NCBI GenBank assembly: GCA_046704725.1 | Contig: JBJKRI010000006.1 | Coordinates: 128,001-192,000, forward strand | Length of the DNA: 64,000 bases | DNA from: Candidatus Woesearchaeota archaeon | GTDB taxonomy: Archaea > Nanobdellota > Nanobdellia > Woesearchaeales > SKIA01 | Reading direction: 5' to 3' | Shown: positions 7,848-51,630 of the stretch, piece after piece | Layout: every line of letters begins with the position of its first letter | How positions within the stretch are numbered: the stretch's first letter is position 1 | Translations under genes and position numbers: made by a program | Notes under the pieces: generated by a model | What the model was told of the DNA's origin: nothing | Seen by the model: only the letters and a program-made list of their open reading frames with translations | Database searches by the model: none

Positions 7848-7890
7848 GCCGCACAGCTTTATATATTCGGTTCCCCCGAAAAGGTCAGCG

Positions 7891-8166
7891 ATGCGCGCAG
7901 CGACACTCCTCATCATCATACTTGCCCTCCCGTTCGCCACGGCCATGACAGGCTACTGCACAGGGCACTACGTCGAGAAGGGACCGAACTGGGTGGACGG
8001 CCTCGTGCAGAAGGGCGACGTGTACGAGTACTACTGCGAACTACCCAGCACAGTGTCAGGCGACGATACATTCAACCTCCACCTGCAGTACAGCAACGCC
8101 GAGCTCACACAGCAATTCCTCGCGCCGCGCGTGGTCTATGGAACGACACTGGTGATATTCCCATGA
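7891..8166 (+). CDS. Small secreted protein resembling an archaellin C-terminal half
   Basis: Sec signal, then YVEKGPNWVDGLVQKGDV...P...IFP aligning to the C-termini of the archaellins at 42416-44325. Confidence 0.6.
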   Translation: MRAATLLIIILALPFATAMTGYCTGHYVEKGPNWVDGLVQKGDVYEYYCELPSTVSGDDTFNLHLQYSNAELTQQFLAPRVVYGTTLVIFP

Positions 8167-8489
8167 ACGGCATAGAGCTCCTCGTTCTCCTGATAGCCGC
8201 GATCGGCATCACGGCGGTCGTCGTGCTCGTCTACGTGCAGGACGTGCACAGCTACCAGCTCAGCAGCAACCCGATACCCAAAGAATCGGATGTGCGCGTG
8301 GTCAACGTTATCGCGCAGAACATCAGCAACGGCAGCTTCAAACAGGTACGCATCAGCGTGACGACGACCGGAAAACTCGCACTGAACACGACACTCATCA
8401 CGCTGCAGACGGCGAACGGCTCTGCCGACCTGCAATGGCGCAACGGCACGCTCAAGCGGAACGTGACGACGGGGTTCTACACGCAATGA
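8163..8489 (+). CDS. Pilin/archaellin N-terminal-half-like protein
   Basis: Hydrophobic N-terminal helix, then VRVVNVIA...LALNTTLITLQT resembling archaellin AKVIEVSA...IKLSEVTLTFNT. Confidence 0.55.
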   Translation: MNGIELLVLLIAAIGITAVVVLVYVQDVHSYQLSSNPIPKESDVRVVNVIAQNISNGSFKQVRISVTTTGKLALNTTLITLQTANGSADLQWRNGTLKRNVTTGFYTQ

Positions 8490-10402
8490 AGCCATTGCTC
8501 ATTCTCCTCGCGCTGCTCGCCGCCATCCCCGTAGCGACAGCATTACAGACGACGCTCACAGTGACCGGATGCACCGCGACCATCTGCAACACGACAGAGC
8601 TCAACGCGTGGAACAACGTCTCGGGCATGAACATCAGCAAGAACGGCGCGGGGAACGTGAGCATGAGCCAGTTCGCGGGGAACAACCTGAGCACCATCAC
8701 GAACGTCTCGTTCCTCCTCTCGCACGACGGCGACTCGTCCATATCCGGCTCGTGGACCATCACGTTCTGGAACGAGACCAGCCAAGCGGCGTACTGCAGC
8801 ATGACCACGCCACTGGTGACAGCGTGGACGGTCGTGAACCTCACACCGACCGGCTGCGCATGGACGCCGGCGAAGCTCGCCGACCTGGGCGTGAACTTCG
8901 CGAACGGGGACACGGGAAAGCCCGCCACCGCGTATGTGGACTACTTCGACAGCACCGTGGTCTACTCTCCACCGCCCGTGCAGGACACGTTCGTGCGATA
9001 CACCTACGTGAGCCGGAGCGCGGCGACGATCGCCTGGGACACGAACAACGCCGCGAACAGCACCGTAGAGTACGGGACGACCACAGCGCTAGGGACCACG
9101 CTCACCAACACGAGCCTCACGACAAACCACAGCGCCACCATCAGCGGCCTAGCGGCGAACACCCTCTATTACTACAACGTGACCAGCTGCGACGGCAACA
9201 CCTGCAACACCTCCGGGCCGTACAACCTCACCACCTACCAAACTCTCCAAGTGGCGACGTGCAGCGGCGTGACCTGCTCGGTGTCCGGCGTGAACAGCTA
9301 CGACAATATCACGAGCGCGACGGGAACGAGCACGAACAACTACACGGCGAACTACACCGCCCTGGGACAATCCACGGCGACAATACAGAACATGACGTAC
9401 CGCATCGACTATAGCACGCAGAGCGCGACGGTCACATTGCTCTTCGAGAACGCCTCGAGCGGCACGCAATGGTGCAGCGCGACGCTGCCCGCGCAGGCGA
9501 GCATGACCTACGCCGAGGTCACACCGACAGGCTGCGCATGGACGCCGGCACGGCTCGACCAGCTATCGGTCGTCCAGGGCTACGGCGCGACGGACACGAG
9601 CAGCTTCGACTTCACGGCGGCGCTCGTGGATTACGTCTTCTTGCCGCAGATCAGCGGCGTGCGGAACGGGACGCTCAGCCTCAGTCAAAAACAAGTGAAC
9701 TGGACGACGCTCAACGCCGCGAACGGGACCATACAGTGGGGGAACACGACAGCGCTGGGCAACACCCTGACGAACACCACCTTTACGACCACACACCAAG
9801 CGACCATCACCGGGCTCTTGACGAGCACGACATACTACTACAACATCACGAGCTGCACGACGGACGGCTGCGAGACAGTCGGGCCCTACAGCTTCACCAC
9901 GCCAGCAGACCTCACACCCATCATCAGCAACGTGCAAGCGACGAACATCACCGACACCGGAGCGACCATCACTTGGACGACGAGCGCGGCGGCGAACAGC
10001 AGCGTGGACTACGGGAACACGAGCGCGTTAGGGACGAACGTCACGAACGCGACGCAGACGACGACGCATAGCATCGCCATTACCGGACTGAACACCACGA
10101 CGACCTACTATTACAACGTGACCAGCTGCAACAGCTTCGGCTGCAAAAGCGCGGGCACCTACAGCTTCATCACCGCGCCGCCCAAGAAGACATGCACCTA
10201 TATCTACACGCAGAAAGGCAGCGACTGGAAGCAAGGCATGCTCTCCAAAGGGGACGTGGTGCGCATTACCTGCCGGCTGCCGACGGCCATCCGGCCAAGA
10301 CAGGACCTCACTATCAAGCTGCTCTTCGAGAAGATCGAGTCCAGCCTGATGGTCCAGACGCCACGATTGTTCGTGCACGATCCGGAGGCGGTGTACCCAT
10401 GA
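8486..10402 (+). CDS. Secreted FN3-like repeat protein with an archaellin-C-half-like C-terminal domain
   Basis: Signal peptide; three FN3-like repeats (ATI.W.T...ANS.V.YG...H...I.GL...T.YYYNVTSC); C-terminal QKGSDWKQGMLSKGDVVRI...VYP. Confidence 0.7.
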   Translation: MKPLLILLALLAAIPVATALQTTLTVTGCTATICNTTELNAWNNVSGMNISKNGAGNVSMSQFAGNNLSTITNVSFLLSHDGDSSISGSWTITFWNETSQAAYCSMTTPLVTAWTVVNLTPTGCAWTPAKLADLGVNFANGDTGKPATAYVDYFDSTVVYSPPPVQDTFVRYTYVSRSAATIAWDTNNAANSTVEYGTTTALGTTLTNTSLTTNHSATISGLAANTLYYYNVTSCDGNTCNTSGPYNLTTYQTLQVATCSGVTCSVSGVNSYDNITSATGTSTNNYTANYTALGQSTATIQNMTYRIDYSTQSATVTLLFENASSGTQWCSATLPAQASMTYAEVTPTGCAWTPARLDQLSVVQGYGATDTSSFDFTAALVDYVFLPQISGVRNGTLSLSQKQVNWTTLNAANGTIQWGNTTALGNTLTNTTFTTTHQATITGLLTSTTYYYNITSCTTDGCETVGPYSFTTPADLTPIISNVQATNITDTGATITWTTSAAANSSVDYGNTSALGTNVTNATQTTTHSIAITGLNTTTTYYYNVTSCNSFGCKSAGTYSFITAPPKKTCTYIYTQKGSDWKQGMLSKGDVVRITCRLPTAIRPRQDLTIKLLFEKIESSLMVQTPRLFVHDPEAVYP

Positions 10403-10683
10403 GGAGCCAGGCAGCGCTCATATTGTTCATCGCGGGGATGCTCGTCGCGGCGCTCGCTGTCGGAGCGATCGTCCAGGTCGTGCGCAACCAACCGACCACG
10501 GCCGACGTCACGGCGCCGGCGAGCAGCCCGACCATACAGCAAGTCGGGGTCTGGAGCGTCTCGAACCAGAGCGCGCAATACGTGACGATCGACGTGGCCG
10601 GCTCGAACACGCCCGTCGCGCTCAACAGCACGCTCGTGACGTTGAGCATGCAGTCCGGCACGGCGAGCTACACCCTCTCCTAG
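10399..10683 (+). CDS. Pilin/archaellin N-terminal-half-like protein
   Basis: MRSQAALILFIAGMLVAALAVGAIVQ resembles archaellin LIIFIAMLLVAAVAAGVLLQ; PVALNSTLVTL. Confidence 0.6.
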   Translation: MRSQAALILFIAGMLVAALAVGAIVQVVRNQPTTADVTAPASSPTIQQVGVWSVSNQSAQYVTIDVAGSNTPVALNSTLVTLSMQSGTASYTLS

Positions 10684-12038: not shown

Positions 12039-12662
12039 GTGGCGCGCGTACGATACTACACGTTCTGGCTGGCAGGAATCCTCGTCGTGGTCTTCGGGCT
12101 GCAGCAGATCGTGCCGTACCGCTTCGCCTGGCACGTCGGAGCGATCGAGCCGCAGTTCTTCATCTCGTTGTTCTCGCACGCATCGGTCGCGCACCTCTTG
12201 GGGAACCTGTTCGCCCTGCTCATCTTCGGCGGCATCCTCGAAGGGGTGATCGGGAGCACACGCCTCGCGTGGGTGCTCATCGCCGCCGGCGTCGCGGGAA
12301 ACCTCGCGGGGATCGGGACGTACTATAGCGTGCTCGGAGCCTCAGGAGCGATCTTCGGCGCCATCGGCACGCTCATCGTGCTAAGACCGCTCATGGTGAT
12401 CTGGCTGGACTTCCTGCCGTTGCCGATGATCGTGCTGGGCATCGGCTACGCCGTCGTGGAGACCATCGGAGCCATCGCGAACGCGGACCACACGGGGCAC
12501 CTCGCGCACCTCGCAGGATTCGCTGTGGGCGTCGTCTTCGGGCTCGCCTGGAGAAAGCAGTTCCCCGCGCCGCGACGGCTCAAGAGGTATCGCGACAGGA
12601 CGCGCGACAAGCAGATCGACGCGCAGCTCGACGAGTACGAGAAGCGCTATATGGGGGGTTGA
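12039..12662 (+). CDS. Rhomboid intramembrane serine protease
   Basis: H...HLLGN, GASGA and AHLAG motifs. Confidence 0.9.
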   Translation: MARVRYYTFWLAGILVVVFGLQQIVPYRFAWHVGAIEPQFFISLFSHASVAHLLGNLFALLIFGGILEGVIGSTRLAWVLIAAGVAGNLAGIGTYYSVLGASGAIFGAIGTLIVLRPLMVIWLDFLPLPMIVLGIGYAVVETIGAIANADHTGHLAHLAGFAVGVVFGLAWRKQFPAPRRLKRYRDRTRDKQIDAQLDEYEKRYMGG

Positions 12663-13420
12663 TCCTTCTTCTCCTTCCGGCGGCTACGGATCCACAGCAC
12701 CATCACGACAAGGCCGATGAGGACGACCATGCCGGCGCCGACATAATTCGGTCCGGGAACCTTCGCGGCCACTGGAGCGGGCTTCGGAGCGCTCTTCGAA
12801 GAGGCACTCTGATCGGGAGCCGTGGTGTTCTGCGAGGCGGTCGGTGACGGCGCGGGCGCCGTCGCGTTCGATGAGCCGGTCTTGCTCGCCGCGGAGGTCG
12901 ACGCAGGAACATTCGAAGAAGCGTTCGATACGTTCACCACGGCCGGCGGGACGGTCACATTCGTGGTGTTCGTCGTGTTCTGCACGGTCTGGTTCGGGCA
13001 GTCGGCCGGGCATTGCTCGCCCGGGTCGCAATAGCCGTCGCCGCACCACGGCGCGGAGGGCTGGCAGACATTGTGGACGCACGCACCGCCGCACTTCGTC
13101 GTCGCTGTGCACTTCTGGCCGAAGCCGACGCAATCGTTGCCGCACTTGTTCGTGATGGTCGCGTTGATCTGGTAGATGTGCGGATAGTACTGGACGCGGT
13201 CTTCGCTGATCGACTGCAAACAGACCACATAGATATCCTTGTTGTCGCACTGTCCCGGACGCAGGAGGAGCGAGTAGTACGGACCGGTGAGATAAAGCGC
13301 GCTGTTGTCGCCGGCGACGGTCACGTTGAAATGCTCTCCACCGATGGTGACGCCGTTGTCCGCGTAGAAGGTGGTGGCCGCGACGAGCAGCAACGGCAGG
13401 AGGAGGAGCACGGTGCGCAT
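12647..13420 (-). CDS. Cys-rich secreted membrane-anchored protein
   Basis: Signal peptide, CGDGYCDPGEQCPADC motif, S/T/P linker, C-terminal TM plus basic tail. Confidence 0.75.
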   Translation of the reverse strand: MRTVLLLLPLLLVAATTFYADNGVTIGGEHFNVTVAGDNSALYLTGPYYSLLLRPGQCDNKDIYVVCLQSISEDRVQYYPHIYQINATITNKCGNDCVGFGQKCTATTKCGGACVHNVCQPSAPWCGDGYCDPGEQCPADCPNQTVQNTTNTTNVTVPPAVVNVSNASSNVPASTSAASKTGSSNATAPAPSPTASQNTTAPDQSASSKSAPKPAPVAAKVPGPNYVGAGMVVLIGLVVMVLWIRSRRKEKKDQPPI

Positions 13421-17183: not shown

Positions 17184-17585
17184 ATGCAGTGGAAACGGCT
17201 ACGCGAGCCCGTAGTAATAATCCCCCTGGGATACGTCATCACCCTCGGGGCGTTCCTCGCGCCGTCGTACCAGCGGCAAGTGAAAGCATCGCTGAAGGAT
17301 ACCTTGACCAACGACGTGCAGCATGCCCAGCAAGTGACCGGGGCGCTCGAGCGACGCCTTAATGATTCGCGCATCCCCATCGAGCACCGGGCACGGGCCG
17401 CGCCCTACGTGCAGAGCGCCGACTCATCGTTCAGATCGCTCGCCGAACGATTGCAGAGACCGTCGACGGACAGCATCAGCACCTACCAGGCCGAGGCGCT
17501 GCAGGCGTGCGACAACGCGCGGCGCGCCGAAAGACTGCTGCAGGACACGATATACTCCGGCTGCGCAACGCGCTCAGGGCTCTAG
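17184..17585 (+). CDS. Hypothetical membrane-anchored protein
   Basis: N-terminal TM, helical remainder; TTTAAA upstream. Confidence 0.5.
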   Translation: MQWKRLREPVVIIPLGYVITLGAFLAPSYQRQVKASLKDTLTNDVQHAQQVTGALERRLNDSRIPIEHRARAAPYVQSADSSFRSLAERLQRPSTDSISTYQAEALQACDNARRAERLLQDTIYSGCATRSGL

Positions 17586-20500
17586 GACTGCTGCTCGAAG
17601 GACGGCGCCTGATCCATCGCATGCTCCCAACCCTCATTCGGAGGGCTCTTGGGCGGGCGGTGCGCGCGGTATTCGTGCCAAGCGTACGCGCCGATCGCGA
17701 TGACGGCGATGGCGAGGAGGACCCAACCGATCCAGCCGTTGCCGCCGCTCGGCGGGGGCGGCGTCGCCGTCGTGTTCGTGACGTTCTTCGGCGGCGTCGA
17801 GTTGGACGCGTTCGGATTCTGCTCGGGCGGTGGGGTGCCGGGCTTGGTCGGGGGCTGTTGTGTGATCGTGGAGTTCGTCGAGGGCTGCGTGGTCGGCGTG
17901 TTCGAGGCGGCGAACGATACCGCGAACGGGCTGAAGCCCGGCGTGCGCGCCTCGTAGGTGACCGACGTACTGTTCTGCGAGACGACTCCCGTGGGCAATT
18001 GCTGCCAGCCGTTCACGTAGTGCAAGAGGACGACGCCATAGACAGAGTAGCCGTGCGACGTGATCCAGCTCTTCGGGACGGAGAAGCGGATGGTCGCGTC
18101 ACCGACGAGCGAGCTGTCGGGCAGTCCTGTCGTATTGATGTCGAAGTACTGGTAGACCGGCCGTCCCACAGGATGCGGAGCGGACGTCTGGCCGATGGTC
18201 ATGCTCGCGTAGGCGAGGGTCTCGTTCACCTGGAAAGCGATGCGCATCACCGAAACGTTGGACGCGGGGACGGTCCACGTGTTCGAGCCGCCCGCCGAGA
18301 GCAATCCCCAGGTCTGGGTGGCGACCTTGGACACGGCCGAGGGAAGCGTGACGTAGCCACCACCGCCACCGCCACCGCCGCCACCAGTGGATGAGGTGCA
18401 GGATTGCGTCTGCGTGTCGGTCGTGTTCCCGCCGCCATAGCAGGTGCGGGTGCCCGTGCGCGACTGCGAGCTCGACGAGCACGCGCTCCAACTGCCGTAG
18501 GTGTACGTCGTGGTGCACGCCGCGGGCGTGATGGAGACATTGTTCGTCGGTCCGAGCGTGCTGTTGAGGTTGCCGCCATCGTCCTTGACGACGACCACGT
18601 AGATGTAGTTCGTGCCCGTCGTCGCGTTCGTATCCGTGTAGGAGGCGCTGGTGGACGTGTTGAGGGCTGCGCTCGTGTTGCTCGTGTTGAGCGCGCTCAC
18701 GTTCGTCGTGCGATAGATGTAATAGACGTTGCCGTGCGTCTCGGCGTTGCCTGCCGTGTCATTCGTCACGGCGGTCCAGGTGAGGGCGACGCTGCCGTCG
18801 GTATTCGTCGTCGCGTTCAGCGACGTGGGCGAGGACGGCGCGATCGTGTCGTTCGCCGTCACGTTCTGCGCCGTGAAGGTCGTGTTCTCATGGCCCAGAG
18901 AATTGACCGTCGTGACCGCGTACCAGTACGTCGTGTTGCTCACGGTCGTGTTGTCCGTGTAATCCAGTCCGCTGACGGTGGCGAGCGCCGACAGGCCCGA
19001 GAGGTTGGAGAACGAGGAGGCCTTGCGGTAGACCTTGTAGGAGACAGCGTCGGTCACGTTCGTCCAGTTGAGCTCGACGTTGCCGTCATGGTCCGTGTCG
19101 GCGACGGTGAAGACGGTCTGGTTAGGCACCGACAGGTTCACCGCGGTGAAGGTCTGCGTCGCCGAGGAGACCGCGTTTCCCGCCTCGTCGACGGCCGATA
19201 CGCTCCAATCGTAGAGGCCGGCCGCGAGGGTCCTGTTGAGGACCATGGTGCCGTTGGCCATCTGCCCCGTGCCGTTGGCCGTGCCGTTGACGTAGAGCGT
19301 ATAGTTGATGGTCGAGGCGAGGTTGTCGGTGAGCGTGAAGTTGAAGCCGACCGACGTGGATGTGTTGGAGCCGTTCGCCGGAGCGTTGATCGTGATGCTC
19401 GGCGCGGTCGTGTCCACCGTCACGGCCGTGGCGGACGTGTTGATCGCGTTGCCCGCATCGTCGGTCGCCTGGAGGACGAGAGAGTGGTTGCCCTGCGCGA
19501 GCGTCGGTGTGAGGTTTTCTGCCACGCCCGAGGACGCGTTCCCGCTGAGCGAGGCGGAACCGTCCACGAATAGCGTGTAGTTGATCGGGTCCGCGATATT
19601 GTCTGAGACGTTTATCCTCACGGTCGGCGTGGTGGTGTTCACGGACACGCCGCTCGACGGTGAGAGGATGGCCGCTGTCGGTGCGGTGCTGTCGACATGA
19701 AGCGTGAGGGATGTGCTGTTCACGCTGTTGCCGGCGTCGTCAGTGGCCTGCACGACGACGTTGTGCGTACCGTCCGCCAAGGAGGAGAGGTTCACGCTCT
19801 TCGCCGTGTTGTTGGTCGCGTTGCCGGTGGCGCTCGACGAGCCGTCCACGAATACCGTGTAATTGATGCTCGACGAATAGTCGTCAGTGAGCGTGAAGGT
19901 GATCTGCGGGGTGCTATCATTGGTCCATGAATCGTTCGCCGGCGCGGATATCGTGGATGTCGGTGGTGCTGTCGCGTTGAGCGTGATGTTGATGTCCTGA
20001 CTGCTGTTGAGCACGACCGAGCTGTTGTTCGCGAGCGTCGCGAGGACCGATATGGGATAGACACCGGAGGCGTTCGCCGAGACGGTGAGGTTGAACGACT
20101 CGGTCGCGTTCGACGCGATGGCGACGCTATTCCGCGTCGTGCTTCCGTTGAGCCAGGCAGAGACCCCGGGGGGAGCGTCCACGCTGAAGTTGTATGTCTC
20201 GCTCGTGTTCATGGTGTTGTTCGCGGAGAAGAGCATGCTCGTGTTCGCGTCGACGAGCGCGGAGAGGTTGTCAGTCGTCTGGTTCGCATACACCAGGGTG
20301 TAGGTCGTGCTGCCCGCGGTATAGCTGCTGAAGCCGAAAGAAGCGGGTACCTGCCATGTGCTTGACATGGCCGTGGTGGACAGCAATTGGACGCCCGGGG
20401 AGTTGCTGATGTCCGTGCAGTTGGTGCCATTATCGGCGCAGTGATAGAGCTTGTCGCCCGGATAGGGTATCTGCAGCTCGATGCTCTGCGCGCCGAGCTT

Positions 20501-23500
20501 CTGCGCGAGCGTCGACCAGGCGCTGTGGCCGATGCCGATGAGCGTGGAGTTGCCCTGCGCCTGCGCGATGAGGTCTCCGCTGAGGTCGAGGAGCGACGTG
20601 TCAGTGAGGTCGACGTCCTCGAAGGTGATGGACCAGTTGGTGCTCGCATTCGCGTTCGGGTTGCGCAGCGTCAGGTTCACGTCAACGTAGTTCTGCCCGA
20701 AGGTTAGGGTGCTGTTCGTATTGTACGACGTCCCGTTCACGATGATGGAGAGGTTGCCGAGATAGCTCGATGGGGTGCCGTTCGGCGTGAAGTTGAACAT
20801 GACCGCGGTGCTCGCGGCCGACGACGCCGTCGTGAAGTTGATGCACGCGGACAGACCAGTGTTATTCGCGTAGTCGATGTTCTGGATCCGGTAGAAGTAC
20901 GTGCTGTTCGGCGTGAGGGAGTAGTTGAGGGTCTTCTGGCCGAGGAAGAGCTGGTGCCAGGGCCGGAAGACGTCGTTCGCCACGTTCTGCGGGCCGAGGT
21001 CCACGATCGTACTATTGAGCGTCGAGCACGTGGAATCGTTCTTGTAGAAGAGGATGGAGCCGTTCGTCGGCTCGCTCGACACCCAGCGCACGACCGCGCC
21101 GTTGGTGAACTGGTTGCCGTTGCTCGTCTGGATCGTCGGGCGCGTCACGTCCGCGGAGACGTTGTACGAGCCCTTGCACTGCGGCGCGAGCTCGCAGTCA
21201 GGGTCGGCGCAGTTCACCAGGCCATTGCCGTTCTCGTCACCGGGAGCGATGCAGTCCTCGACGGGCATGAAGTTCCCCTGGCCGAGGAGCGCGAACGTGG
21301 CGCCGCACGAACTCGGGTTCTGGAAGCAATCGACGGGCTTGACGTCCATGGTTCCAGGAGTATAGTAGACATTGCTGATAGCGTCGTACGCGGAGAGGTT
21401 GCTCACGTTGCTCCAACTGCCGTTGATGACCGCTCCCATGAAACGCATGTTGCCGGTGGGATTCCCGAGGGAGGATTGCGCGATCATCACCGCGGCAGCG
21501 GACTGCTGCGGTGAGCACTCGACGGGAGTGGATTGGGACTGATTCGGGCCGGTCGACATGGTGGCTGGAGAGAGCGCCGCGTCACGCACGACCCAGGTGC
21601 CGTTATAGCAGGCGTAGAAGAGCTTCTCCTGACCGGATTCGTTGACCTGGGTGTAGTTCCCGTACTTGAGCATGTACTCGAAACCGGTGTAATTGACGCT
21701 GTTGACCGTGACGTTGCATCCCGTCGAAGCATTCGCGTCGGTATCGATGAGGTACATGAACTTCATGTCCGTGATATTGCCGCCGCACGCCTTGAGGTCG
21801 GTGAGATTGTGCATCATCATCCCGACTCCCATGCCGTACGTGCTAATCGCGATGCCGAAGCCACCGATGCTCACGTTCGAGGACGCATTATCGGGCGGAT
21901 CCGCCTTGAGGCGCAGAATCTTCCCCATCCCCTCGCCGAGCTTCATCTTGAGCGCCTGTGTGCCGGTGAGCCCTTGGTATGGACCAGTAAGGGTGTTGAG
22001 GTTCCCACCACAGCTCAATGCGTTCGCGCACTGCGGGTCGGCGCAGTCGACAAGGCCGTTGCCGTTGTCGTCGACACCGTTGAAGCAGATCTCCGTGTTC
22101 GGCGCGCTCTGACAGACCGACCAGGTGCTGTTCCAGTTCCAGCCCGCCGCGGCGCACGTCGTGTTGGTGTAACAGTCGGCAGGGTTCGCGGCGCACGTGG
22201 TCTTGAGCCCCTTGATGTCGCACCAGCCGCCCGGGTTGAACGTGTCGTTGTACCACTGGCAACCGCCCCAGTCCTTCCCGCCGTTCGCGTTGCTGTTGGC
22301 GCACTGGTCCTGCGTGAAGCAGCTGCCGCACGCCGCGTCACAACTGCCGCCAGTGATCTGCGAGGGATTGAACTGTTCGGTGCACATGCCCGTGCTGCCG
22401 TTGGGCAGGCTCACGCTCGACTGCCACTGACAGTCGCCGATGCCGTTGTTCGCGTTATCGTTGCACGACGTGCTGTTCTTGATGACGAAGCATCCGGCGG
22501 TGGAGTTGAAGGCCTTGAAGTCCGGGTTGCACAGCCCGTCGGTCGAGTTGAAGGCCTGCCAGACGCACTTGTAGTTCTTCGTGTTGTTCACGCACGACGA
22601 CGCGTTCGTGTGGTCGAATAGGTAACACGCGCCCTGGTCGGGCGGCGGGCCGTTGACGAGGAAAGACGAGTAGTTCTGCGAACCGACGCCGCCGAAGTTC
22701 GTGAGGAAGTCGATCGGGTTCGCCGTGTGCTGGCTGACGTTGAAGGTGTTGGTCTCGAAGTTGAGCTTCGGCGTGATGTTGCCGAAGGCCGCGGTCTTGT
22801 TCACGACGAGCGTGATGCCCTGCTCCTTCGGGTCCGTGGCCGAACAGTTGTAATAGATGAAGGTGTCGTTCGCGCTGATGCTCGTGTTCGCATAGAAGCT
22901 GATGCCGTTCGAGTCGGAGCCGTTTGGATTGTGCTGGGTGAAGAGCGTCTTGTTGCTGTCGGGGAAGTACCAGATCTGGTAGTCAGAGCCGGGATAGCAG
23001 CTCTCGTTGTTCGGGTTGCAGCCGGTGCTCTGGTTGTTGTCGATGTCGAACTCCACGACGAAGGCGACGCTCTTGTTCGTGCCGTCGCAGACGCTCATGT
23101 TGCTGCTGACGGCGAACGGCCCGCTGATGTGCCAGGCCATGTAGTCACCCTGCTGCTCGGTCCAGACGGCAGCAGTATCATAGTTGACGTCGCCCTTGCC
23201 GTTGCACGCGTCCGTCCCGTTGCTCGAGTGCGTGTTGCAGCAGTTCTCACCGGGCGTGGTGAAGCTGCCCGCGTACTGCGGGTTACGATAGCAGCCGGGA
23301 CCGCGCGCGACGTACGGCGCGCCGGGGAAGGTGAAGTTCGCGGCGGCAGCGAGGAACTTCGCCGACTGCGCGTGGCTCCACAAGGGACTATAGTTGCTCT
23401 GCGGACCTTGTCCGCCGGGCGCGGTATTGATCGTGATGCTGCGCGAGTCGTTGGTCAGGTTCGTCCCGTTCTCATCCTTGAGTGTAGCGTTGACGCTCGT

Positions 23501-24256
23501 CGTGCCGTTGAGGGCCGCGGTGGCGTTCATACTATAGAACAGCGAATTGTTGCCCGTGATATTGAAGGTCCACCGCAACTCCCCGTTCGTGTGGTTGTCG
23601 ACCGTAGGGGTCGGCGAGGATGACGTGTAATTGAGGTATGTCGGCGCATAATCGAGGTACAAGGTGAGGTTGCTGGCGTTCTGCGTCTGCAGGTTGGTGA
23701 CGTTGACGCTGATGTCGACGGTGTCGTTCACGTTCACGCTCGTCGGCATGGAGATCAGGACCTGGTATGACGGGCCGGTCGTTGTGATATTGAGGGGGAT
23801 CGTGACGTTCTTCAGCGAGACGTTGGATGAGTTACGAACATCAGCGTACGCTTGCGTGTTCCCGTTCTGCAGGGCGGTGTAGTTGGCCGCGACGATGAAG
23901 GATTGATTCGGTTGGAGGTTGAGGATGTTCCAGAGAATGTACTGACTGGAGTTCTGCGTGCTGTTGCCGTATGTGCCGTTGCTCGCGGTGAAGTTGAGGT
24001 AGCTCGTGTCCGTCATCTCCATGACGGTGAAGTTCGTGTAGTTGACGCTGTCGTTGTTGGTGAGGTTCAGGATGTAGCTGACTGTAGTACTGGGATGCGC
24101 AGGACCAGATATCTGGTACATGTGGAATTGGACGGCGCTCACAGCACCAATGCTCGCCAGAAGAAGGAGTACAGCGATAAATGCAGTCTGCGCGTTGCTT
24201 CGCTTGCTCTTCACTTTTCCCTCCGCTCCCGGAACGTGTAGCGCCCTCGCCTTCAT
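17582..24256 (-). CDS. Giant cell-surface glycoprotein with Ig-like/FN3 domains and a PGF-pre-PGF domain
   Basis: 2224 aa; signal peptide; many N-x-S/T sequons; Cys-rich blocks; poly-G linker; YEARTPGFSPFAV; C-terminal TM. Confidence 0.85.
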   Translation of the reverse strand: MKARALHVPGAEGKVKSKRSNAQTAFIAVLLLLASIGAVSAVQFHMYQISGPAHPSTTVSYILNLTNNDSVNYTNFTVMEMTDTSYLNFTASNGTYGNSTQNSSQYILWNILNLQPNQSFIVAANYTALQNGNTQAYADVRNSSNVSLKNVTIPLNITTTGPSYQVLISMPTSVNVNDTVDISVNVTNLQTQNASNLTLYLDYAPTYLNYTSSSPTPTVDNHTNGELRWTFNITGNNSLFYSMNATAALNGTTSVNATLKDENGTNLTNDSRSITINTAPGGQGPQSNYSPLWSHAQSAKFLAAAANFTFPGAPYVARGPGCYRNPQYAGSFTTPGENCCNTHSSNGTDACNGKGDVNYDTAAVWTEQQGDYMAWHISGPFAVSSNMSVCDGTNKSVAFVVEFDIDNNQSTGCNPNNESCYPGSDYQIWYFPDSNKTLFTQHNPNGSDSNGISFYANTSISANDTFIYYNCSATDPKEQGITLVVNKTAAFGNITPKLNFETNTFNVSQHTANPIDFLTNFGGVGSQNYSSFLVNGPPPDQGACYLFDHTNASSCVNNTKNYKCVWQAFNSTDGLCNPDFKAFNSTAGCFVIKNSTSCNDNANNGIGDCQWQSSVSLPNGSTGMCTEQFNPSQITGGSCDAACGSCFTQDQCANSNANGGKDWGGCQWYNDTFNPGGWCDIKGLKTTCAANPADCYTNTTCAAAGWNWNSTWSVCQSAPNTEICFNGVDDNGNGLVDCADPQCANALSCGGNLNTLTGPYQGLTGTQALKMKLGEGMGKILRLKADPPDNASSNVSIGGFGIAISTYGMGVGMMMHNLTDLKACGGNITDMKFMYLIDTDANASTGCNVTVNSVNYTGFEYMLKYGNYTQVNESGQEKLFYACYNGTWVVRDAALSPATMSTGPNQSQSTPVECSPQQSAAAVMIAQSSLGNPTGNMRFMGAVINGSWSNVSNLSAYDAISNVYYTPGTMDVKPVDCFQNPSSCGATFALLGQGNFMPVEDCIAPGDENGNGLVNCADPDCELAPQCKGSYNVSADVTRPTIQTSNGNQFTNGAVVRWVSSEPTNGSILFYKNDSTCSTLNSTIVDLGPQNVANDVFRPWHQLFLGQKTLNYSLTPNSTYFYRIQNIDYANNTGLSACINFTTASSAASTAVMFNFTPNGTPSSYLGNLSIIVNGTSYNTNSTLTFGQNYVDVNLTLRNPNANASTNWSITFEDVDLTDTSLLDLSGDLIAQAQGNSTLIGIGHSAWSTLAQKLGAQSIELQIPYPGDKLYHCADNGTNCTDISNSPGVQLLSTTAMSSTWQVPASFGFSSYTAGSTTYTLVYANQTTDNLSALVDANTSMLFSANNTMNTSETYNFSVDAPPGVSAWLNGSTTRNSVAIASNATESFNLTVSANASGVYPISVLATLANNSSVVLNSSQDINITLNATAPPTSTISAPANDSWTNDSTPQITFTLTDDYSSSINYTVFVDGSSSATGNATNNTAKSVNLSSLADGTHNVVVQATDDAGNSVNSTSLTLHVDSTAPTAAILSPSSGVSVNTTTPTVRINVSDNIADPINYTLFVDGSASLSGNASSGVAENLTPTLAQGNHSLVLQATDDAGNAINTSATAVTVDTTAPSITINAPANGSNTSTSVGFNFTLTDNLASTINYTLYVNGTANGTGQMANGTMVLNRTLAAGLYDWSVSAVDEAGNAVSSATQTFTAVNLSVPNQTVFTVADTDHDGNVELNWTNVTDAVSYKVYRKASSFSNLSGLSALATVSGLDYTDNTTVSNTTYWYAVTTVNSLGHENTTFTAQNVTANDTIAPSSPTSLNATTNTDGSVALTWTAVTNDTAGNAETHGNVYYIYRTTNVSALNTSNTSAALNTSTSASYTDTNATTGTNYIYVVVVKDDGGNLNSTLGPTNNVSITPAACTTTYTYGSWSACSSSSQSRTGTRTCYGGGNTTDTQTQSCTSSTGGGGGGGGGGYVTLPSAVSKVATQTWGLLSAGGSNTWTVPASNVSVMRIAFQVNETLAYASMTIGQTSAPHPVGRPVYQYFDINTTGLPDSSLVGDATIRFSVPKSWITSHGYSVYGVVLLHYVNGWQQLPTGVVSQNSTSVTYEARTPGFSPFAVSFAASNTPTTQPSTNSTITQQPPTKPGTPPPEQNPNASNSTPPKNVTNTTATPPPPSGGNGWIGWVLLAIAVIAIGAYAWHEYRAHRPPKSPPNEGWEHAMDQAPSFEQQS

Positions 24257-40480: not shown

Positions 40481-40873
40481 CTAAAGCTTCTTGGCGGCGG
40501 CGTGGCGTCGGAAGGACTCGACGATGTCGATGACGTACTTGCCGTCCTCGAGCTTGTAGACCAGGGGCTGGCGGTCGGTGAAAAGGTTGACCAGGTCGAG
40601 CTCGTAGCGGCCGGGTCCGAGGATGTTGATCGACTCGATGTCCAAGACGACGGGCTTGTCCCGGTCGATCTCGTCGCCGATGAGGCTGAGCACGTCGCTC
40701 TCTATCTGGTTGCGCTGCTCCTCGGAGAGGGCCGCGCCACGCTTCTTGGCCTCCTCGACCTTGTTCTTCTTGACGTAGAAGAAGAACTTCCCGCCGCATT
40801 TGCTGCAGCCGTCGAGGATCTCCTTGCTACCGTCGTCGTAGAAGGTGTTGCACTGCACGCACTGGTGGGGCAT
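40481..40873 (-). CDS. Zn-ribbon protein (OapC/DUF2072)
   Basis: MPHQCVQC...GCSKCGGKFF, ESINILGPGRYELD. Confidence 0.88.
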   Translation of the reverse strand: MPHQCVQCNTFYDDGSKEILDGCSKCGGKFFFYVKKNKVEEAKKRGAALSEEQRNQIESDVLSLIGDEIDRDKPVVLDIESINILGPGRYELDLVNLFTDRQPLVYKLEDGKYVIDIVESFRRHAAAKKL

Positions 40874-40912
40874 GTGCCTAGCAGTCTCAGACGCGCTATA
40901 TAAAGGATTCGC

Positions 40913-41365
40913 TTAGCCGAGGAGGTCCAGGGCCGCGACGCAGAGCCGCCTGGTGCTCTCCGGGATATCCATGCTCTCTATCTCCTCGCGGGTGCACCAC
41001 TTGCAGACCGTGCGCTCGTGATTGTCGGGCTGCACGACACGGTCGCTGTCGGCGCTGGCCGCGAACTCGATGCAGAAGTGGTCGTGGGTCTCGGACACCT
41101 TGTGCCGGTCGATCGCGAGGGGCTGCGGGAAGAGCGTGAACTCGTCTCCTGGAGCGTAATCAGGCTCTCCGGGGATGTGCACGTCCAGGCCGACCTCCTC
41201 CTTGGCTTCCCGATGGGCAGCCTGGAGCGGATCCTCTCCCGGGTCGACGTGGCCACCGACTCCCAGCCAGAGGTCCCATTTGTCGTGCAGCCGCAGCAGG
41301 ACCTTCCCGTCGTGCACGATCCAGAGCTGGACCACGAAACAGCAGCTGTCGTCGGTGTGCGGCAT
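40913..41365 (-). CDS. NUDIX hydrolase
   Basis: GGHVDPGE...AAHREAKEEVG. Confidence 0.9.
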   Translation of the reverse strand: MPHTDDSCCFVVQLWIVHDGKVLLRLHDKWDLWLGVGGHVDPGEDPLQAAHREAKEEVGLDVHIPGEPDYAPGDEFTLFPQPLAIDRHKVSETHDHFCIEFAASADSDRVVQPDNHERTVCKWCTREEIESMDIPESTRRLCVAALDLLG

Positions 41366-41427
41366 ATGACAGATGAGCAGACAACTCGCTCAAAAGCTTT
41401 CGTGTGCGCGACGTGCGGAAAACAAAC

Positions 41428-41793
41428 TCACTGCGTGAGCAACTGGATCTTGTCTGGGTCCTGCTTGATCTCCTTGACCACAGACGCGGGGCCGATGATG
41501 GTCAGGCCGGCGCGGTTGCCTTGGAGCAGGTTCACGAGCCTGCTCTTGAGCTTGCCGAGGAACTCCTGGTTGCCCGCGTCAGGGTACAAGACAGCGAGCT
41601 CGATGCCCTTGAACTTCTTGTCGATGGACTCCATCGTCTTCTGGATGAGCGATCCCTCCTCCTCGGGGGTCAGGCGTCCTTCCATGAGCACGATCTTGTT
41701 CTGCTTGGCCACAGCCAATAGTTTCTTGATGCGCTCCTTGCTCGACAGGCCGTCGATCTCCTGATAGGGGATGAACTGGAGGGTGAGGCTCAT
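41428..41793 (-). CDS. DUF2073 protein (OapB)
   Basis: EGRLTPEEE..LIQKTM...FKGIE, GLTIIGPA; start MSLTLQF at 41793. Confidence 0.85.
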   Translation of the reverse strand: MSLTLQFIPYQEIDGLSSKERIKKLLAVAKQNKIVLMEGRLTPEEEGSLIQKTMESIDKKFKGIELAVLYPDAGNQEFLGKLKSRLVNLLQGNRAGLTIIGPASVVKEIKQDPDKIQLLTQ

Positions 41794-42419
41794 TTCGTCA
41801 CCTCGAACAACGACTCGTAGAAGTCCTCGATGTGCTTTCCGAACTTCGCGCTGATACCGACGATCTTGTACTGCGGGAACGCCGCCTGGATGCGTTTCAG
41901 ATCGGATTTCTTGAGGTCCGTCTTGTTCGCGACGAGCAGTACCGGGATGTCCCGTGCCTGCAGGTTGCCCACGATCGTGATGTTGACCTGACTGTAGGGG
42001 TCCTTGGTGGAGTCCAGGACGACGATGACCGCGTCCATGTCGTCGAGCCACTTGATGGCGTCGATGACGCCCTTGGTCGCTTCCTTGGCGCGGGACTTGG
42101 CGTCCTTCTCCTTCATGCCCGACTTGATGAACTCCTCGTAGTCGATCTTCGTGGCGATACCAGGAGTGTCGACGAGGTTGAAGGTGAGCTCACGGCCGTC
42201 CTTGCTCTTGATGGTCACACTCTCCTTGATCTGGACCTCGCGCGTCTCGTGCGCCATGCTCGAGACGGATCCCATCTCCTCGCCGAGCCAGTCCTCGCAG
42301 ATACGGTTCGCGAGCGTGGTCTTGCCGCCGTTCGGAGGACCGTACAGGCCGAGCTTGACCTGCTTCTTACCGCCGAACAGGTCGCGGAAAAGTGACTTCA
42401 GGAAGCTGGTCAGGCTCAT
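41790..42419 (-). CDS. Era-like GTP-binding protein (OapA)
   Basis: GLYGPPNGGKTTLANRI, HETR, DTPG, ANKTD, ISA. Confidence 0.9.
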   Translation of the reverse strand: MSLTSFLKSLFRDLFGGKKQVKLGLYGPPNGGKTTLANRICEDWLGEEMGSVSSMAHETREVQIKESVTIKSKDGRELTFNLVDTPGIATKIDYEEFIKSGMKEKDAKSRAKEATKGVIDAIKWLDDMDAVIVVLDSTKDPYSQVNITIVGNLQARDIPVLLVANKTDLKKSDLKRIQAAFPQYKIVGISAKFGKHIEDFYESLFEVTK

Positions 42420-43111: not shown

Positions 43112-43750
43112 TCAGGGATACAAGTAGACCCGCTCGGTACTGATGACATCCGGCGTGTTGAACTCCACGAGGGTCGGGGTACCGATCTTCGGGATGAAGT
43201 TTATCCGGACGGCCTCGTCCTGGGCGATGGAGAACGGCGCGTCGAAGTATACCCGGATGACATCGCCACGCTGGAGGTTCCCATCGAGGTGATTGGTCCC
43301 ATTGATCAGATAGTCCACCGTGAAGTTGCCAGTGTACGAACCGGAGCCCGCGGAGGCGGTCCCCGCACACTGGCTCGCAGTGAGGTTCGCGGTGGCGTTC
43401 GAGCAATAGACCGAAGTATTGGTCGGGGCCCGATAAATCAGTGTCGTGGTCGAGTTCACCGTGTTGAACGTCAAGGTGACCTCGCTGAGCTTGATCGGAT
43501 CGGAGCCGGGACTCAACTTCATCTGCATCGAGAAGTTCTCCACCGTCTGGTCCGTGCCATCCACTGCCGAGACCTCGATGACCTTCGCGTTGGTGGATAT
43601 CTCACCCTTCGATTGCTGGCCCGTCGATAGGGCCTTCTGCTGGAGGCTGCCAGTGGTCTGCAGGAGAACACCTGCAGCGACCGCGGCGACCAACAGCATA
43701 GCAATAAAGATAATGAGGGTGCCGACACCCATCTCCGCACGTCTACTCAT
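43112..43750 (-). CDS. Archaellin
   Basis: RA/EMGVGTLIIFIAMLLVAAVAAGVLLQT. Confidence 0.88.
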   Translation of the reverse strand: MSRRAEMGVGTLIIFIAMLLVAAVAAGVLLQTTGSLQQKALSTGQQSKGEISTNAKVIEVSAVDGTDQTVENFSMQMKLSPGSDPIKLSEVTLTFNTVNSTTTLIYRAPTNTSVYCSNATANLTASQCAGTASAGSGSYTGNFTVDYLINGTNHLDGNLQRGDVIRVYFDAPFSIAQDEAVRINFIPKIGTPTLVEFNTPDVISTERVYLYP

Positions 43751-44325
43751 GGATACAGGTAGACCCGCTCCGTGCTGATGACATCCGGCGTGTCGAATAT
43801 CACCCGCGTGGACGTGCCGATCTTCGGGATGAAGTTCAGACGCACATAGGCCCCTTCACCGATGGAACTCGGCGCGAGGAACTGCATCTCGACCACATCG
43901 CCGCGCACCATGACACCGTTCTGGTGGTTCGCGCCCTGCTGCAGGTACGTGACCACGAACGTCCCGTTCTGGTCCGTCGCGTTCACCGAAGGCGTGCTCG
44001 ACGCATTGTCATAGATGTACGTCGTCGTCGTGTTGACCGTGTTCAGCGTCAGCGTGGAATCGCCCAGCTTGATTGAATCGCTTCCCGGTGCGAGCTTCAT
44101 GATCATCGAGAAGTTCTCGATGTTCTGGTTCGTCCCGTCGACCGCACTGACCTCAAGCACGACAGCGTTCGTGCTGATCTGGCTCGTGGCCTGAGAACCG
44201 GTGGACAACGCTCGTTGCTGGAGGCTCCCAGCAGTCTGTATAAGCACTCCTGCAGCCACCGCGGCGACGAGCAGGAGAGATATGAAGATTATCAGGGTTC
44301 CGACGCCCATTTCTCCTTTTCTCAT
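43747..44325 (-). CDS. Archaellin
   Basis: MRKG/EMGVGTLIIFISLLLVAAVAAGVLIQT; GGAGTGA RBS upstream. Confidence 0.88.
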   Translation of the reverse strand: MRKGEMGVGTLIIFISLLLVAAVAAGVLIQTAGSLQQRALSTGSQATSQISTNAVVLEVSAVDGTNQNIENFSMIMKLAPGSDSIKLGDSTLTLNTVNTTTTYIYDNASSTPSVNATDQNGTFVVTYLQQGANHQNGVMVRGDVVEMQFLAPSSIGEGAYVRLNFIPKIGTSTRVIFDTPDVISTERVYLYP

Positions 44326-49526: not shown

Positions 49527-49617
49527 TTGTAAGTGATTTTTAGTGCAAGATACTCAATGAAAGCGCAAGAATTATATAATAGAAAAGGATACATTTCTGT
49601 ATCAATAGGTGATGTAA

Positions 49618-49893
49618 ATGTCTGCTATTCTAGATGCGGATCCGAAGCACTGGCCCACGCTAAACACAGTGATCATGGTAGAGCAAACAATAAACAAGCT
49701 CGACGATAGTATCGTCACTGTTCCTCAAATCAAACGCGCGTTGCCACGAAAAGTCAACCATAATACCCTCAAACTCATCCTCAAGTACTTAGAGGAAAGT
49801 AACAAGATCGCCGTAAGCATAGATGGAATTACCTGGATCCACAATCAGAATCAAAAGCTACAACGAGCGATTCAATCAGGTTTAGAGCTGTGA
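49618..49893 (+). CDS. Cassette 1 putative antitoxin (winged-helix-like)
   Basis: 91 aa; GTGA overlap with a RelE-like gene. Confidence 0.6.
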   Translation: MSAILDADPKHWPTLNTVIMVEQTINKLDDSIVTVPQIKRALPRKVNHNTLKLILKYLEESNKIAVSIDGITWIHNQNQKLQRAIQSGLEL

Positions 49894-50243
49894 AACGAGC
49901 ACGCATTATTTTATCTCCAGAAGCAGAAGAGGTCTACAACTATCTGAACAAAGAGGCAAGCAAGTCAAAAACAGAGCGCGCAATACTGAATGCCTTCAAC
50001 AAGAAAAAAGATCTGATCAAGAACAACATCCACTATGGTGAACCGATCGCAAAAAGCAAAATTCCTGAGGCGTACAAGAAATCGTATGGAGTGACGAATT
50101 TATTCTGGGTAGACTTGCCGGATGCGTGGAGGATGCTGTATACGCTGACAAACGATGAATCTCAGATTGAGATTATCGCATTTGTGCTGGATATCTTCGA
50201 TCACAAAGCATACGAGAAAAAAATGGGATACAAGAAGAGCTAA
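49890..50243 (+). CDS. Cassette 1 putative RelE-like toxin
   Basis: Basic protein; NLFWVDLPDAWRMLYTL...DHKAYEKKMGY. Confidence 0.6.
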   Translation: MKRARIILSPEAEEVYNYLNKEASKSKTERAILNAFNKKKDLIKNNIHYGEPIAKSKIPEAYKKSYGVTNLFWVDLPDAWRMLYTLTNDESQIEIIAFVLDIFDHKAYEKKMGYKKS

Positions 50244-50280
50244 TCATTGCCAACCTTGCAACTTCTGAAAATCACGTATT

Positions 50281-50339
50281 GCCACTAACATACGGGTTGA
50301 GCGCGTCCTGATAGGATGCGTGCTAGTCGTTGTTATGGG
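50281..50339. repeat. attC-like site 2
   Basis: GCCACTAACATACGGGTTGAGCGCGTCCTGATAGGATGCGTGCTAGTCGTTGTTATGGG. Confidence 0.85.
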
Positions 50340-50417
50340 TTGCTGCCGATATGCCAGGCGCAGTCTTTGAATTTCGCGAATTGATACTATTATAAAGGAG
50401 GAACATACTGTGTTAAC

Positions 50418-50864
50418 ATGGATTTTGCGTACGAAGGAGATTACACCTACGGTCACACTCGGGGCACCACGAAAGGTTATGTTCGGCTCGGAGAAGCGGG
50501 AAAGCTTGTTGGCATTGTACGAGATGACGGAGGGCAACGAAAGTTCCTCGTCGGCCATCACACAGACAACAGAGTAGAATTCTTCAAAATTCCCGAACTG
50601 CCACTCAGCGTTCGCTCTTTAGGATACAGCGCAAAAGGAACTCCAGACTCCAGCTACGATGCGCAGTGGGGAGTCATCCCCGTATTTTCAGACGTAGCAG
50701 TTTCATGGAGCAATGTACTCTTTGATCTTCGAGATGTGGAATCAGACCGAGACCTTGATTTCTTGGATGCAGTGGACTTGGATGACATTGTTCGCGCGTC
50801 CGAACAAATAGCTGAAGTCAATCCATCCACAGATACTGCATCTTTCCGACTTAATCCACTATAA
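50418..50864 (+). CDS. Cassette 2 hypothetical protein
   Basis: Single ORF between sites 2 and 3; TTATAAA upstream. Confidence 0.65.
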   Translation: MDFAYEGDYTYGHTRGTTKGYVRLGEAGKLVGIVRDDGGQRKFLVGHHTDNRVEFFKIPELPLSVRSLGYSAKGTPDSSYDAQWGVIPVFSDVAVSWSNVLFDLRDVESDRDLDFLDAVDLDDIVRASEQIAEVNPSTDTASFRLNPL

Positions 50865-50936
50865 ACCCCATTTTCAATCGTGTTCGTCATGGAGTCAAAT
50901 GAAGTGCCTGAACTCCTGAAAGCATATCTGCATTTT

Positions 50937-50994
50937 CCCATAACATACGGGTTGAGCGAGTCGCTTGCGATGCGTGCTAGTCATTGTTAATGGC
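50937..50994. repeat. attC-like site 3
   Basis: CCCATAACATACGGGTTGAGCGAGTCGCTTGCGATGCGTGCTAGTCATTGTTAATGGC. Confidence 0.85.
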
Positions 50995-51104
50995 TGTCGT
51001 ATTGAACGTGCGCGGAGGTGCGGAGAGGCCCAAGAACACAATGTTCCCATTAAATAGTAGTTAGTTACCGGTATGTTTATAAGTACTGTTTTCTTTCCTC
51101 CTGT

Positions 51105-51596: not shown

Positions 51597-51630
51597 CTGT
51601 TACCCGCAAAAACGCACGAACACACGTATT

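Follow-up and report, generated by a model that had tools for sequence, protein, structure and literature searches.

Here, we describe four overlapping genes, designated C1, N1, C2 and N2, in the genome of a Candidatus Woesearchaeota archaeon (assembly GCA_046704725.1; G000 in our genome set) that appear to encode two archaellin domains, each divided between an N-terminal and a C-terminal half. The genome comprises 1.18 Mb in 8 contigs and is 99.7% complete, and the window, i.e., the whole stretch of 64,000 nucleotides that was analyzed, is G000:C6:128001-192000 (contig JBJKRI010000006.1). Re-reading of the sequence confirmed the layout given in a preliminary description of this DNA, i.e., four open reading frames (ORFs) in the order C-half, N-half, cargo plus C-half, N-half (Table 1). 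The four same-strand ORFs have the coding guanine-plus-cytosine (GC) pattern of the genome, and at all three junctions, C1/N1, N1/C2 and C2/N2, the stop codon overlaps the next start codon in the sequence ATGA. A TATA-like box, TTTATATA, precedes C1 and is a putative archaeal promoter of the four-gene operon. In a Pfam scan, the operon is flanked on its 5' side by genes for a PIN/KH ATPase and an LD-carboxypeptidase and on its 3' side by genes for a seryl-tRNA synthetase and a rhomboid protease.

N1 has a start of 3 to 5 residues followed by a hydrophobic helix, a variable linker and strands equivalent to archaellin β1 to β4; it ends in a conserved ...YRxG...GFYTQ and contains six N-X-S/T sequons. 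N2 stops after the fourth strand and is without the GFYTQ tail. The N-terminal starts are MNG-IELL in N1 and MRSQ-AALI in N2. The Sec-type signals proposed earlier for C1 and C2 have counterparts throughout the family: visual inspection showed a positive start, a hydrophobic run and an A-x-A-like end in each of 10 full-length C-half proteins. C2 contains 32 sequons and 16 Cys residues, and its cargo, previously described as FN3-like (fibronectin type III-like), gives Pfam matches to Pur_ac_phosph_N (E 3.6e-18, three stretches), PhoD_N (E 9.4e-10) and fn3 (E 1.7e-8).

Table 1. Features of the C1-N1-C2-N2 locus and intact archaellins used for comparison (positions in the window)
Feature	Position	Strand	Basis and remarks
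TATA-like box TTTATATA	7857..7864	+	27-34 nt before the ATG at 7891; from sequence
C1, 91-residue secreted protein, putative archaellin C-half, cargo-free	7891..8166	+	hhalign to archaellin residues 133-205; orthologues in G002, G003, G004
C1 Sec-type signal peptide MRAATLLIIILALPFATA	7891..7944	+	By eye; orthologues with the same n-h-c layout
N1, 108-residue putative N-half	8163..8489	+	ORF, alignment, hhalign to archaellin
C2, 638-residue secreted protein: signal peptide, cargo, C-half tail	8486..10402	+	ORF, Pfam, BLASTP, profile match (P0007)
C2 Sec-type signal peptide MKPLLILLALLAAIPVATA	8486..8542	+	By eye
C2 FN3-like cargo domain, residues 173-250	9002..9235	+	Pfam PF16656, best stretch
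C2 FN3-like cargo domain, residues 480-552	9923..10141	+	Pfam PF00041, best stretch
C2 putative archaellin C-half tail with Cys pair, residues 566-638	10181..10399	+	Profile match, alignment
N2, 94-residue putative short N-half	10399..10683	+	ORF, BLASTP, alignment; orthologues in G004, G001, P0116/P0118/P0126
Intact archaellin, 205 residues	42416..43033	-	PF01917 above cut-off; structure model matches archaellum subunits
Intact archaellin, 212 residues	43112..43750	-	PF01917 scan
Intact archaellin, 192 residues, start MRKGEMG...	43747..44325	-	PF01917 scan

Homology to archaellins and position of the break

Pairwise and profile comparisons both relate the four proteins to archaellins. By BLASTP, C1 and the C2 tail match the same intact archaellin of the window (E 1e-5 and 1e-4, respectively) and each other (E 5e-10), N1 matches N2 (E 9e-7), and the N2 helix is identical to the archaellin helix at 11 of 20 residues (55%); N1 gave no significant match to the intact archaellin by BLASTP alone (E 0.79). 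For profile comparisons by hhalign, three alignments were built with orthologues from relatives, i.e., A1 with 8 N-halves, A2 with 8 C-half domains and A3 with 9 archaellins. A1 aligned on A3 over archaellin residues 9-109 of 205 (probability 97.8%, E 1.1e-12), and A2 aligned on A3 over residues 133-205, up to the last residue (probability 97.7%, E 1.3e-12). Comparison with a single archaellin sequence gave probabilities of 93.6% for the N-half profile and 96.2% for the C-half profile. In control comparisons, the N-half and C-half profiles reached 21.8% and 0.5%, respectively, with the ArlG-like protein of the same genome and 0.5% and 0.2% with its ArlF-like protein. Membership of the halves in the ArlF/ArlG families was rejected on the basis of these probabilities (0.2-21.8%) and of the position of the genes outside the arl operon. 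The N-half profile also matches solved archaellins, with 5o4u first (E 6.8e-7), followed by 5z1l, 8rh5, 9eq7 and 7ofq. Thus, the by-eye alignment of the C1 and C2 tails with intact archaellins in the preliminary description, and its reading of the N genes as a pilin helix plus first strands that end near the variable region, are both borne out by profile alignment. Altogether, these comparisons support the idea that the four genes encode complementary halves of the archaellin fold, in which the archaellin subunit is spread over two genes per domain and is not one polypeptide.

The break can be placed on an AlphaFold2 (AF2) model of the intact 205-residue archaellin (predicted local distance difference test, pLDDT, 73.7), which matched archaellum subunits in the PDB with E down to 1.5e-14. 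In this model, a helix at residues 9-49 and strands at 55-63, 71-80, 93-97 and 102-107 are followed by a low-confidence loop at 108-132 and then by strands at 133-142, 157-168, 173-179, 186-191 and 200-204. Because the N-half ends at residue 109 and the C-half begins at residue 133, the break sits in the variable loop; the N-half thus accounts for the helix and strands 1-4 and the C-half for strands 5-9, and the variable loop is the only missing part. The cut falls after strand 4 of 9, i.e., within the sandwich rather than at the junction of the α-helix with the globular domain. In relatives, long archaellins that are not split have an insertion at this very site (L027, 313 residues; L028, 432 residues; L038, 512 residues).

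Conservation, origin and cargo of the split

In searches of 41 relative genomes, matches to C1 were found in 10 and matches to N1 in 8. The four-gene arrangement recurs in G004 as C(93)-N(108)-cargoC(826)-N(99), with lengths in residues, while two-gene loci are present in G003 as C-N(106), in G002 as C-N(103), in G001 as cargoC(686)-N(98) and in G006, which belongs to another genus, as cargoC(864)-N(117). All five loci lie beside a seryl-tRNA synthetase gene. On a metagenome contig (L045), a cargoC gene is joined by an ATGA overlap to the gene for a 116-residue N-half, and the synthetase gene follows. G366, from another family, has two loci on one contig. In the one, the gene for a 2,515-residue cargo protein with a C-half end is overlapped by that for a 121-residue N-half; in the other (L042 405-1797, G366:C9), the order is N then C, with a 128-residue N-half, a spacer of 80 nt and a 308-residue C-half protein. 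Overall, an N-half partner adjoins 11 of 11 Sec-type C-half genes with readable surroundings; these genes are from 7 genomes and one metagenome contig (two each in G000, G004 and G366 and one each in G001, G002, G003, G006 and L045). Nine of the 11 pairs have a 4-nt start/stop overlap and one has a 20-nt overlap. The split noted in the window is, thus, a recurrent property of related DPANN genomes, with a GC content of 0.37-0.61 and from at least three genera and two families. Cargo-free C1+N1 pairs are present in G000, G002, G003 and G004.

This conservation makes it extremely improbable that the four genes are remnants of a broken archaellin gene or an artefact of assembly or sequencing. Archaellin pseudogenes do exist in the order: a long archaellin gene in G036 (L043; G036:C15:2500-5500, minus strand) has in-frame TGA, TAG and TGA stops and no start codon. 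The split genes differ from this true pseudogene because the G036 case has mixed stops and no start codon, while the split genes, across the same span of GC content, genera and families, keep their frames open and have gained apparent signal peptides and a Cys pair. Moreover, the order C then N is impossible to obtain from a simple stop codon or frameshift. Recoding of TGA in the G036 archaellin was also considered and rejected; the stops are mixed TGA and TAG, there is no start codon, and reading TGA as sense made hardly any difference to ORF lengths over 20 kb of the contig.

Wider searches differed in yield. Word-indexed protein searches with N1 or C1 alone returned the query itself only, and a 4-row C-half alignment (A4) run against genome contigs returned only an unrelated bacterial stretch (L044). 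The A4 search of metagenome contigs gave one true locus, L045. Of 401 genomes sampled from the order, 52 gave a C-half match; nearly all of these matches were ordinary archaellins, and split forms among the matches listed came from the family of the window and from G366 only.

The split genes fall into two types that differ in gene order. Type B has the order C then N, as in the window, while type A has the opposite order, N then C, and has kept a class III signal peptide of the normal kind. In the type-A pair of L042, the N-half has a normal K/R-rich class III leader and the archaellin helix motif, and its partner consists of a Sec-like signal and an insert rich in Asp (DxDxDG-like) ahead of a C-half that lacks the Cys pair. 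Sixteen short proteins were recovered with a profile of 11 N-halves; seven of them are type A, with 117-142 residues, full class III leaders and the ending ...G(F/Y)(F/Y)T(Y/V)R; some type-A proteins are labelled "FlaB" or "archaellin" by the source. In a maximum-likelihood tree of 68 N-terminal parts over 126 columns, i.e., a short alignment with long branches and an arbitrary root, the 14 type-B N-halves lie on one side of a starred branch (98/98), and the 8 type-A N-halves group together in a starred clade (100/99) that is embedded in the intact long archaellins. These observations suggest two fissions at one site, the N-terminal edge of the outer-domain insertion, and we regard this as a lead and not as proof.

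The C-half is found in many large secreted proteins. When A2 was used in a full HMMER search of 1.84 billion representatives, 109 proteins were found at E ≤ 0.001 and were then classified by script: 47 are intact archaellin-type proteins, 20 combine a Sec-like start with a C-half that forms the very C-terminus (91 to 2,746 residues), 28 are without an N-terminal signal and are mostly fragments, and 14 are other proteins or repeats. The layout with a signal and a C-terminal C-half makes up at least 20 clusters at 50% identity. In these database relatives, the cargo reaches about 2,700 residues. Adhesin-type Pfam domains were found in 17 of 17 large relatives scanned, PF01917 in 0 of 17, and the cargo domains include MG2, FN3/Pur_ac_phosph_N, Big_7, Big_13, laminin-G and CARDB, with Ig-like (immunoglobulin-like) domains among them. 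Together with the Pfam domains of C2, this supports the earlier view of the C-half as a carrier of large adhesin-like cargo. The source names of 10 of these proteins (eight large cargo-bearing proteins and the small C-halves P0005 and P0006) are "hypothetical protein" or are lacking. In two large proteins from the A2 search, P0003 (3,248 residues) and P0021 (1,727 residues), positions 13-65 of the C-half profile were matched 24 and 9 times, respectively; these matches may represent a repeated hairpin-like unit or be compositional.

A Cys pair distinguishes the C-halves from intact archaellins. The preliminary description had noted Cys in place of two Phe residues in the tails of C1 and C2, and this substitution extends far beyond the window: Cys residues occupy both archaellin aromatic positions in 34 of 35 non-archaellin tails as opposed to 0 of 47 intact archaellin-type proteins. 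In the model of the C-half, Cys positions 5 and 31 of mature C1 face each other in the first hairpin, and because of this opposition a new disulfide in the C-half is plausible.

Docking of the halves and site of action

Complex prediction was carried out for one pair, N1 and mature C1, each with its own alignment, in three runs and with three controls. The interface score ipSAE was 0.79 (runs 0.78-0.80) as opposed to 0.00 for the best of the three controls; in a calibration, 116 of 157 solved complexes and 2 of 215 mismatched pairs attained this ipSAE mark. The runs had at least 86% of their contacts in common, with about 219 contacts, and pLDDT was at least 82 for the partner and 66-69 for the other chain. 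The surest residue pairs are antiparallel, N62-66/C27-31 and N78-82/C44-48, and correspond to the archaellin strand pairs β2-β6 and β3-β7 as mapped through the hhalign alignments. The predicted contact between N1 and C1 is, thus, an interleaved sandwich rather than a side-by-side arrangement. Modelling of an N-half with a C-half had been put forward in the preliminary description as a way to see whether the sandwich is rebuilt, and the prediction agrees with its idea of strand complementation. As to which chains belong together, a pairing of C1 with N1 and of C2 with N2 fits the two-gene loci of the relatives; complex prediction covers the C1/N1 half of this proposal.

We suggest that the operon probably encodes two two-chain archaellin domains that dock as plug and socket for cargo. 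In this model, the hydrophobic helix of the N-half (N1, N2) would serve as a membrane hold, followed by the linker and the first four β-strands. The C-half (C1, C2 tail) would be exported separately by Sec, lose its signal peptide and supply the last five strands, its first hairpin probably being stiffened by the new disulfide. Outside the cell, the two half-sandwiches would dock strand to strand (β2/β6, β3/β7) to give one archaellin-like domain. Because the N-terminus of the C-half sits at the site of the outer-domain insertion of long archaellins, fusion of cargo is possible there, and any Sec-exported protein could be joined to this free N-terminus, as exemplified by the FN3-type modules of C2. 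A non-covalent plug and socket would then tie the cargo to the helix of the N-half, and translational coupling through the ATGA overlaps would hold the two chains in step. The homology of each half, their complementarity, the conserved pairing, the predicted interface and the cargo domains were computed, while we infer the export routes, the disulfide and the final location.

Several observations weigh against this model. PF01917, the archaellin family in Pfam, stays below its cut-off on all four proteins, so that the profile search suggested in the preliminary description did not recover them: N1 scores 13.4 bits (E 0.097), where the cut-off is 29.5, and 10.6 bits in the whole-genome scan, and C1, C2 and N2 have no match. 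The C-half profile found no solved chain when compared by sequence with solved structures. The C-half modelled alone folds confidently (pLDDT 80.6, four strands, the last 14 residues weak) and might, therefore, be stable without its partner. This model had no Foldseek match at E ≤ 0.001. By VIA-align, its best Z was 3.0, and archaellin chains, aligned over their C-terminal ends, appeared at Z 2.3-2.7, tied with unrelated folds. These chains are 5ya6_B (Z 2.7, root-mean-square deviation 3.8, 73 positions aligned, residues 128-207) and, both at Z 2.3, 8qx4_H and 9eq7_A. The signal peptides and the disulfide rest on visual inspection. Finally, ipSAE measures the confidence of a predictor that may in part have drawn on archaellin structures learned in training, the input alignments were small, with rows 5-8 of the two alignments not in matching order, and a single pair, C1 with N1, was modelled.

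The confident fold of the lone C-half could also mean that the halves do not bind each other at all, with the N-halves acting as membrane proteins in their own right, comparable to ArlF/ArlG, and the C-half serving surface proteins as an independent C-terminal domain for sorting or wall binding. ArlF and ArlG illustrate that an archaellin-like sandwich on an uncleaved helix works outside a filament (4p94, 5tuh and 5tug are among the structure matches). We nevertheless consider this very unlikely, as each half represents only part of a sandwich, the 11 of 11 adjacency of N-half and C-half genes mostly involves overlapping stop and start codons, the complex score of N1 with C1 far exceeds that of the control, and hhalign links the halves only weakly to the ArlF/ArlG-like proteins of the genome itself.

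A further question is where the docked unit works. The preliminary description envisaged a heterodimeric minor archaellin, polymerized into a filament or at its tip by the archaellum machinery with adhesins riding along. The heterodimer in this proposal is sustained by the complementary halves, the conserved split, the predicted binding of N1 and C1 and the role of the C-half as a cargo carrier, and we regard it as well supported by computation. The seat in a filament meets counter-evidence, and we consider it rather unlikely, even though a number of features speak for it. The helices of the N-halves are archaellin-like, with the identities described above for N2 and with L7/I8/I11 nearly invariant across 11 N-halves, and the start codon of the N-half lies within 3-5 residues of the archaellin cleavage position. 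K/R-rich leaders are kept in the basal type-B member G366_Na and in all 8 type-A N-halves. The existence of cargo-free pairs implies a role for the domain itself. G000 has a complete archaellum set, with ArlG/ArlF-like genes at C7:32039-33372 adjoining arlH/arlI, and one class III peptidase. Moreover, archaellins with extra outer domains do build filaments in Haloarcula marismortui, according to the accessible text of PMC13357602, and for Woesearchaeota the accessible text of PMC11606122 describes highly expressed archaellin genes and proposes roles in attachment.

Against a filament seat, the N-halves of the window have only 3-5 residues before the helix and lack the K/R-G/A context of the peptidase except for R2 in N2, and the hydrophobic run starts after just 3-6 residues in 12 of 14 type-B N-halves. 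By crude motifs, of which the first approximates the consensus, the peptidase context of the lineage was recognized in 0 of 14 type-B N-halves and in 30 of 40 intact archaellins; for the conserved helix extension (SLQQKALSTG-like), the counts were 0 of 14 and 28 of 40, respectively. In place of this extension, Pro/Gly-rich linkers of variable length follow the type-B helix. In addition, cargo of 600-2,700 residues cannot occupy every position of a lattice, and the split genes (contig C6) are far from the arl operon (contig C7). For the copies in the window, we therefore lean, tentatively, towards a membrane-tethered unit with ArlF/ArlG-like topology over a lattice subunit, while type A is regarded as the better candidate for true filament subunits. 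It is doubtful that Woesearchaeota employ the two-gene archaellin as a general plug and socket, in which the archaellum or type IV machinery would take up the N-half into a filament without prepilin peptidase and giant Sec-exported adhesins would attach to the N-half through complementation of the half-domains. If true, the motility filament would be an exchangeable adhesin-bearing organelle for attachment to host cells, and this would be a new way to load cargo onto type IV filaments.

Neighboring genes, known systems and biological meaning

Several other features of the window and the genome were recorded. Outside the window, G000 has two further canonical archaellins and one 306-residue archaellin with an insertion. 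The gene for the latter is two genes away from that for a 6,531-residue repetitive surface protein (G000:C6:76732-97819, outside the window), which is without a C-half end, as the genome search with A2 gave no match at that place. Directly 3' of the archaellin genes of the window, at 40481-42419 (minus strand), are genes for a small GTPase (209 residues), a DUF2073-like protein and a zinc-ribbon protein, and the adjacency of archaellin and GTPase genes was seen again in G001 and G005 (L036 337-969, L040 372-1431). A Cys-rich secreted protein with a C-terminal membrane helix and no Pfam match is encoded at 12647-13420 (minus strand) and is syntenic beyond the rhomboid gene in G000, G001 and G003 (L032 450-1199; L034 73-858). 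A 2,224-residue ORF with the coding GC pattern at 17582-24256 (minus strand) probably encodes another large surface protein. An island of low GC content (0.46 as opposed to 0.61) at 49600-53195 contains small genes, a GNAT-like gene and a gene for one protein with four tandem repeats (51105-51596); it adjoins a tyrosine-recombinase-like gene at 52356-53195 and may be a mobile element.

Profile comparison places the split proteins with canonical ArlB/FlaB archaellins (PF01917; 5o4u, 5z1l, 7ofq, 8rh5, 9eq7), with which they share the N-terminal hydrophobic helix and the β-sandwich, and the C-halves also share the C-terminal ...(V/I)(Y/F)P. They differ in having two genes per domain in the order C then N, a putative Sec signal and a Cys pair on the C-half, and, in the window, N-halves that are almost without a leader, lack the conserved helix extension and score below threshold with PF01917. 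Larger archaellins with outer domains occur in various archaea according to the accessible text of PMC13357602. In ArlA2/ArlB of H. marismortui (9v95/9v96), as in L027, L028 and L038, the extra domain leaves the core at the variable region, similar to the cargo here; however, each of these insertion archaellins is made as one chain, has a class III signal peptide and contains an insert of at most a few hundred residues. The ArlF/ArlG (FlaF/FlaG) stators have the topology that we favor for the window copies, i.e., an archaellin-like sandwich on an uncleaved membrane helix. Unlike the split pairs, they are single chains encoded in the arl operon, and their hhalign probabilities with the halves are at most 22%.

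The closest precedent is the pilin of Geobacter sulfurreducens. In the accessible text of PMC5174107, GSU1496 (PilA-N) and GSU1497 (PilA-C) are adjacent and co-transcribed genes, with the order reversed in some species, and GSU1496 is the helix and GSU1497 the β-sheet part, which has its own signal peptide; in that of PMC11046646, PilA-N and PilA-C form a heterodimeric major pilin of 61 and 104 residues (PDB 6VK9). Common to both systems is the division of a type IV filament subunit between adjacent genes, and the n-h-c pattern discerned by eye in the C-half proteins would be the counterpart of the signal peptide of GSU1497. Two traits of the Geobacter kind recur here: both parts are encoded by adjacent genes that are kept together (11 of 11 loci), and a heterodimer is predicted (ipSAE 0.79 as opposed to 0.00). 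The split archaellins differ in being archaeal, in being cut inside the sandwich and in carrying cargo on the C-part, whereas the Geobacter pilin, as far as described in these texts, is cut at the boundary between helix and globular domain and has no cargo. The two have no sequence relation beyond the superfamily. PilB and PilC of Streptococcus sanguinis use a pilin scaffold to present vWA or lectin modules (PMC11046646, accessible text); they differ from the split pairs in being bacterial and in having the module fused to an intact pilin in one chain. Full-text literature searches, which did not extend to supplements, gave no description of a split archaellin, in line with the preliminary description, and none is mentioned in the accessible parts of a survey from 2026 on archaeal type IV filament systems or of a history of archaellation from 2021.

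DPANN archaea live attached to other cells and, to our knowledge, the anchoring of their huge surface proteins is largely unknown. If half an archaellin domain anchors adhesin-type proteins of 450 to 2,700 residues by their C-terminus, this would provide a concrete mechanism of anchoring, in which the other half of the anchor is a small membrane or filament protein from the adjoining gene. If the predicted interface is correct, the module would be a natural β-sandwich that is split in mid-domain and rebuilt from two separately exported chains, i.e., an archaeal counterpart of the Geobacter split pilin that is cut at another place and bears cargo; this module seems to have emerged twice at one site. 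In annotation, short "FlaB" matches of 95-130 residues and unannotated 72-residue tails of giant proteins become readable as partners. These findings should, therefore, be of interest for research on archaeal surfaces and on the attachment of DPANN archaea to their hosts.

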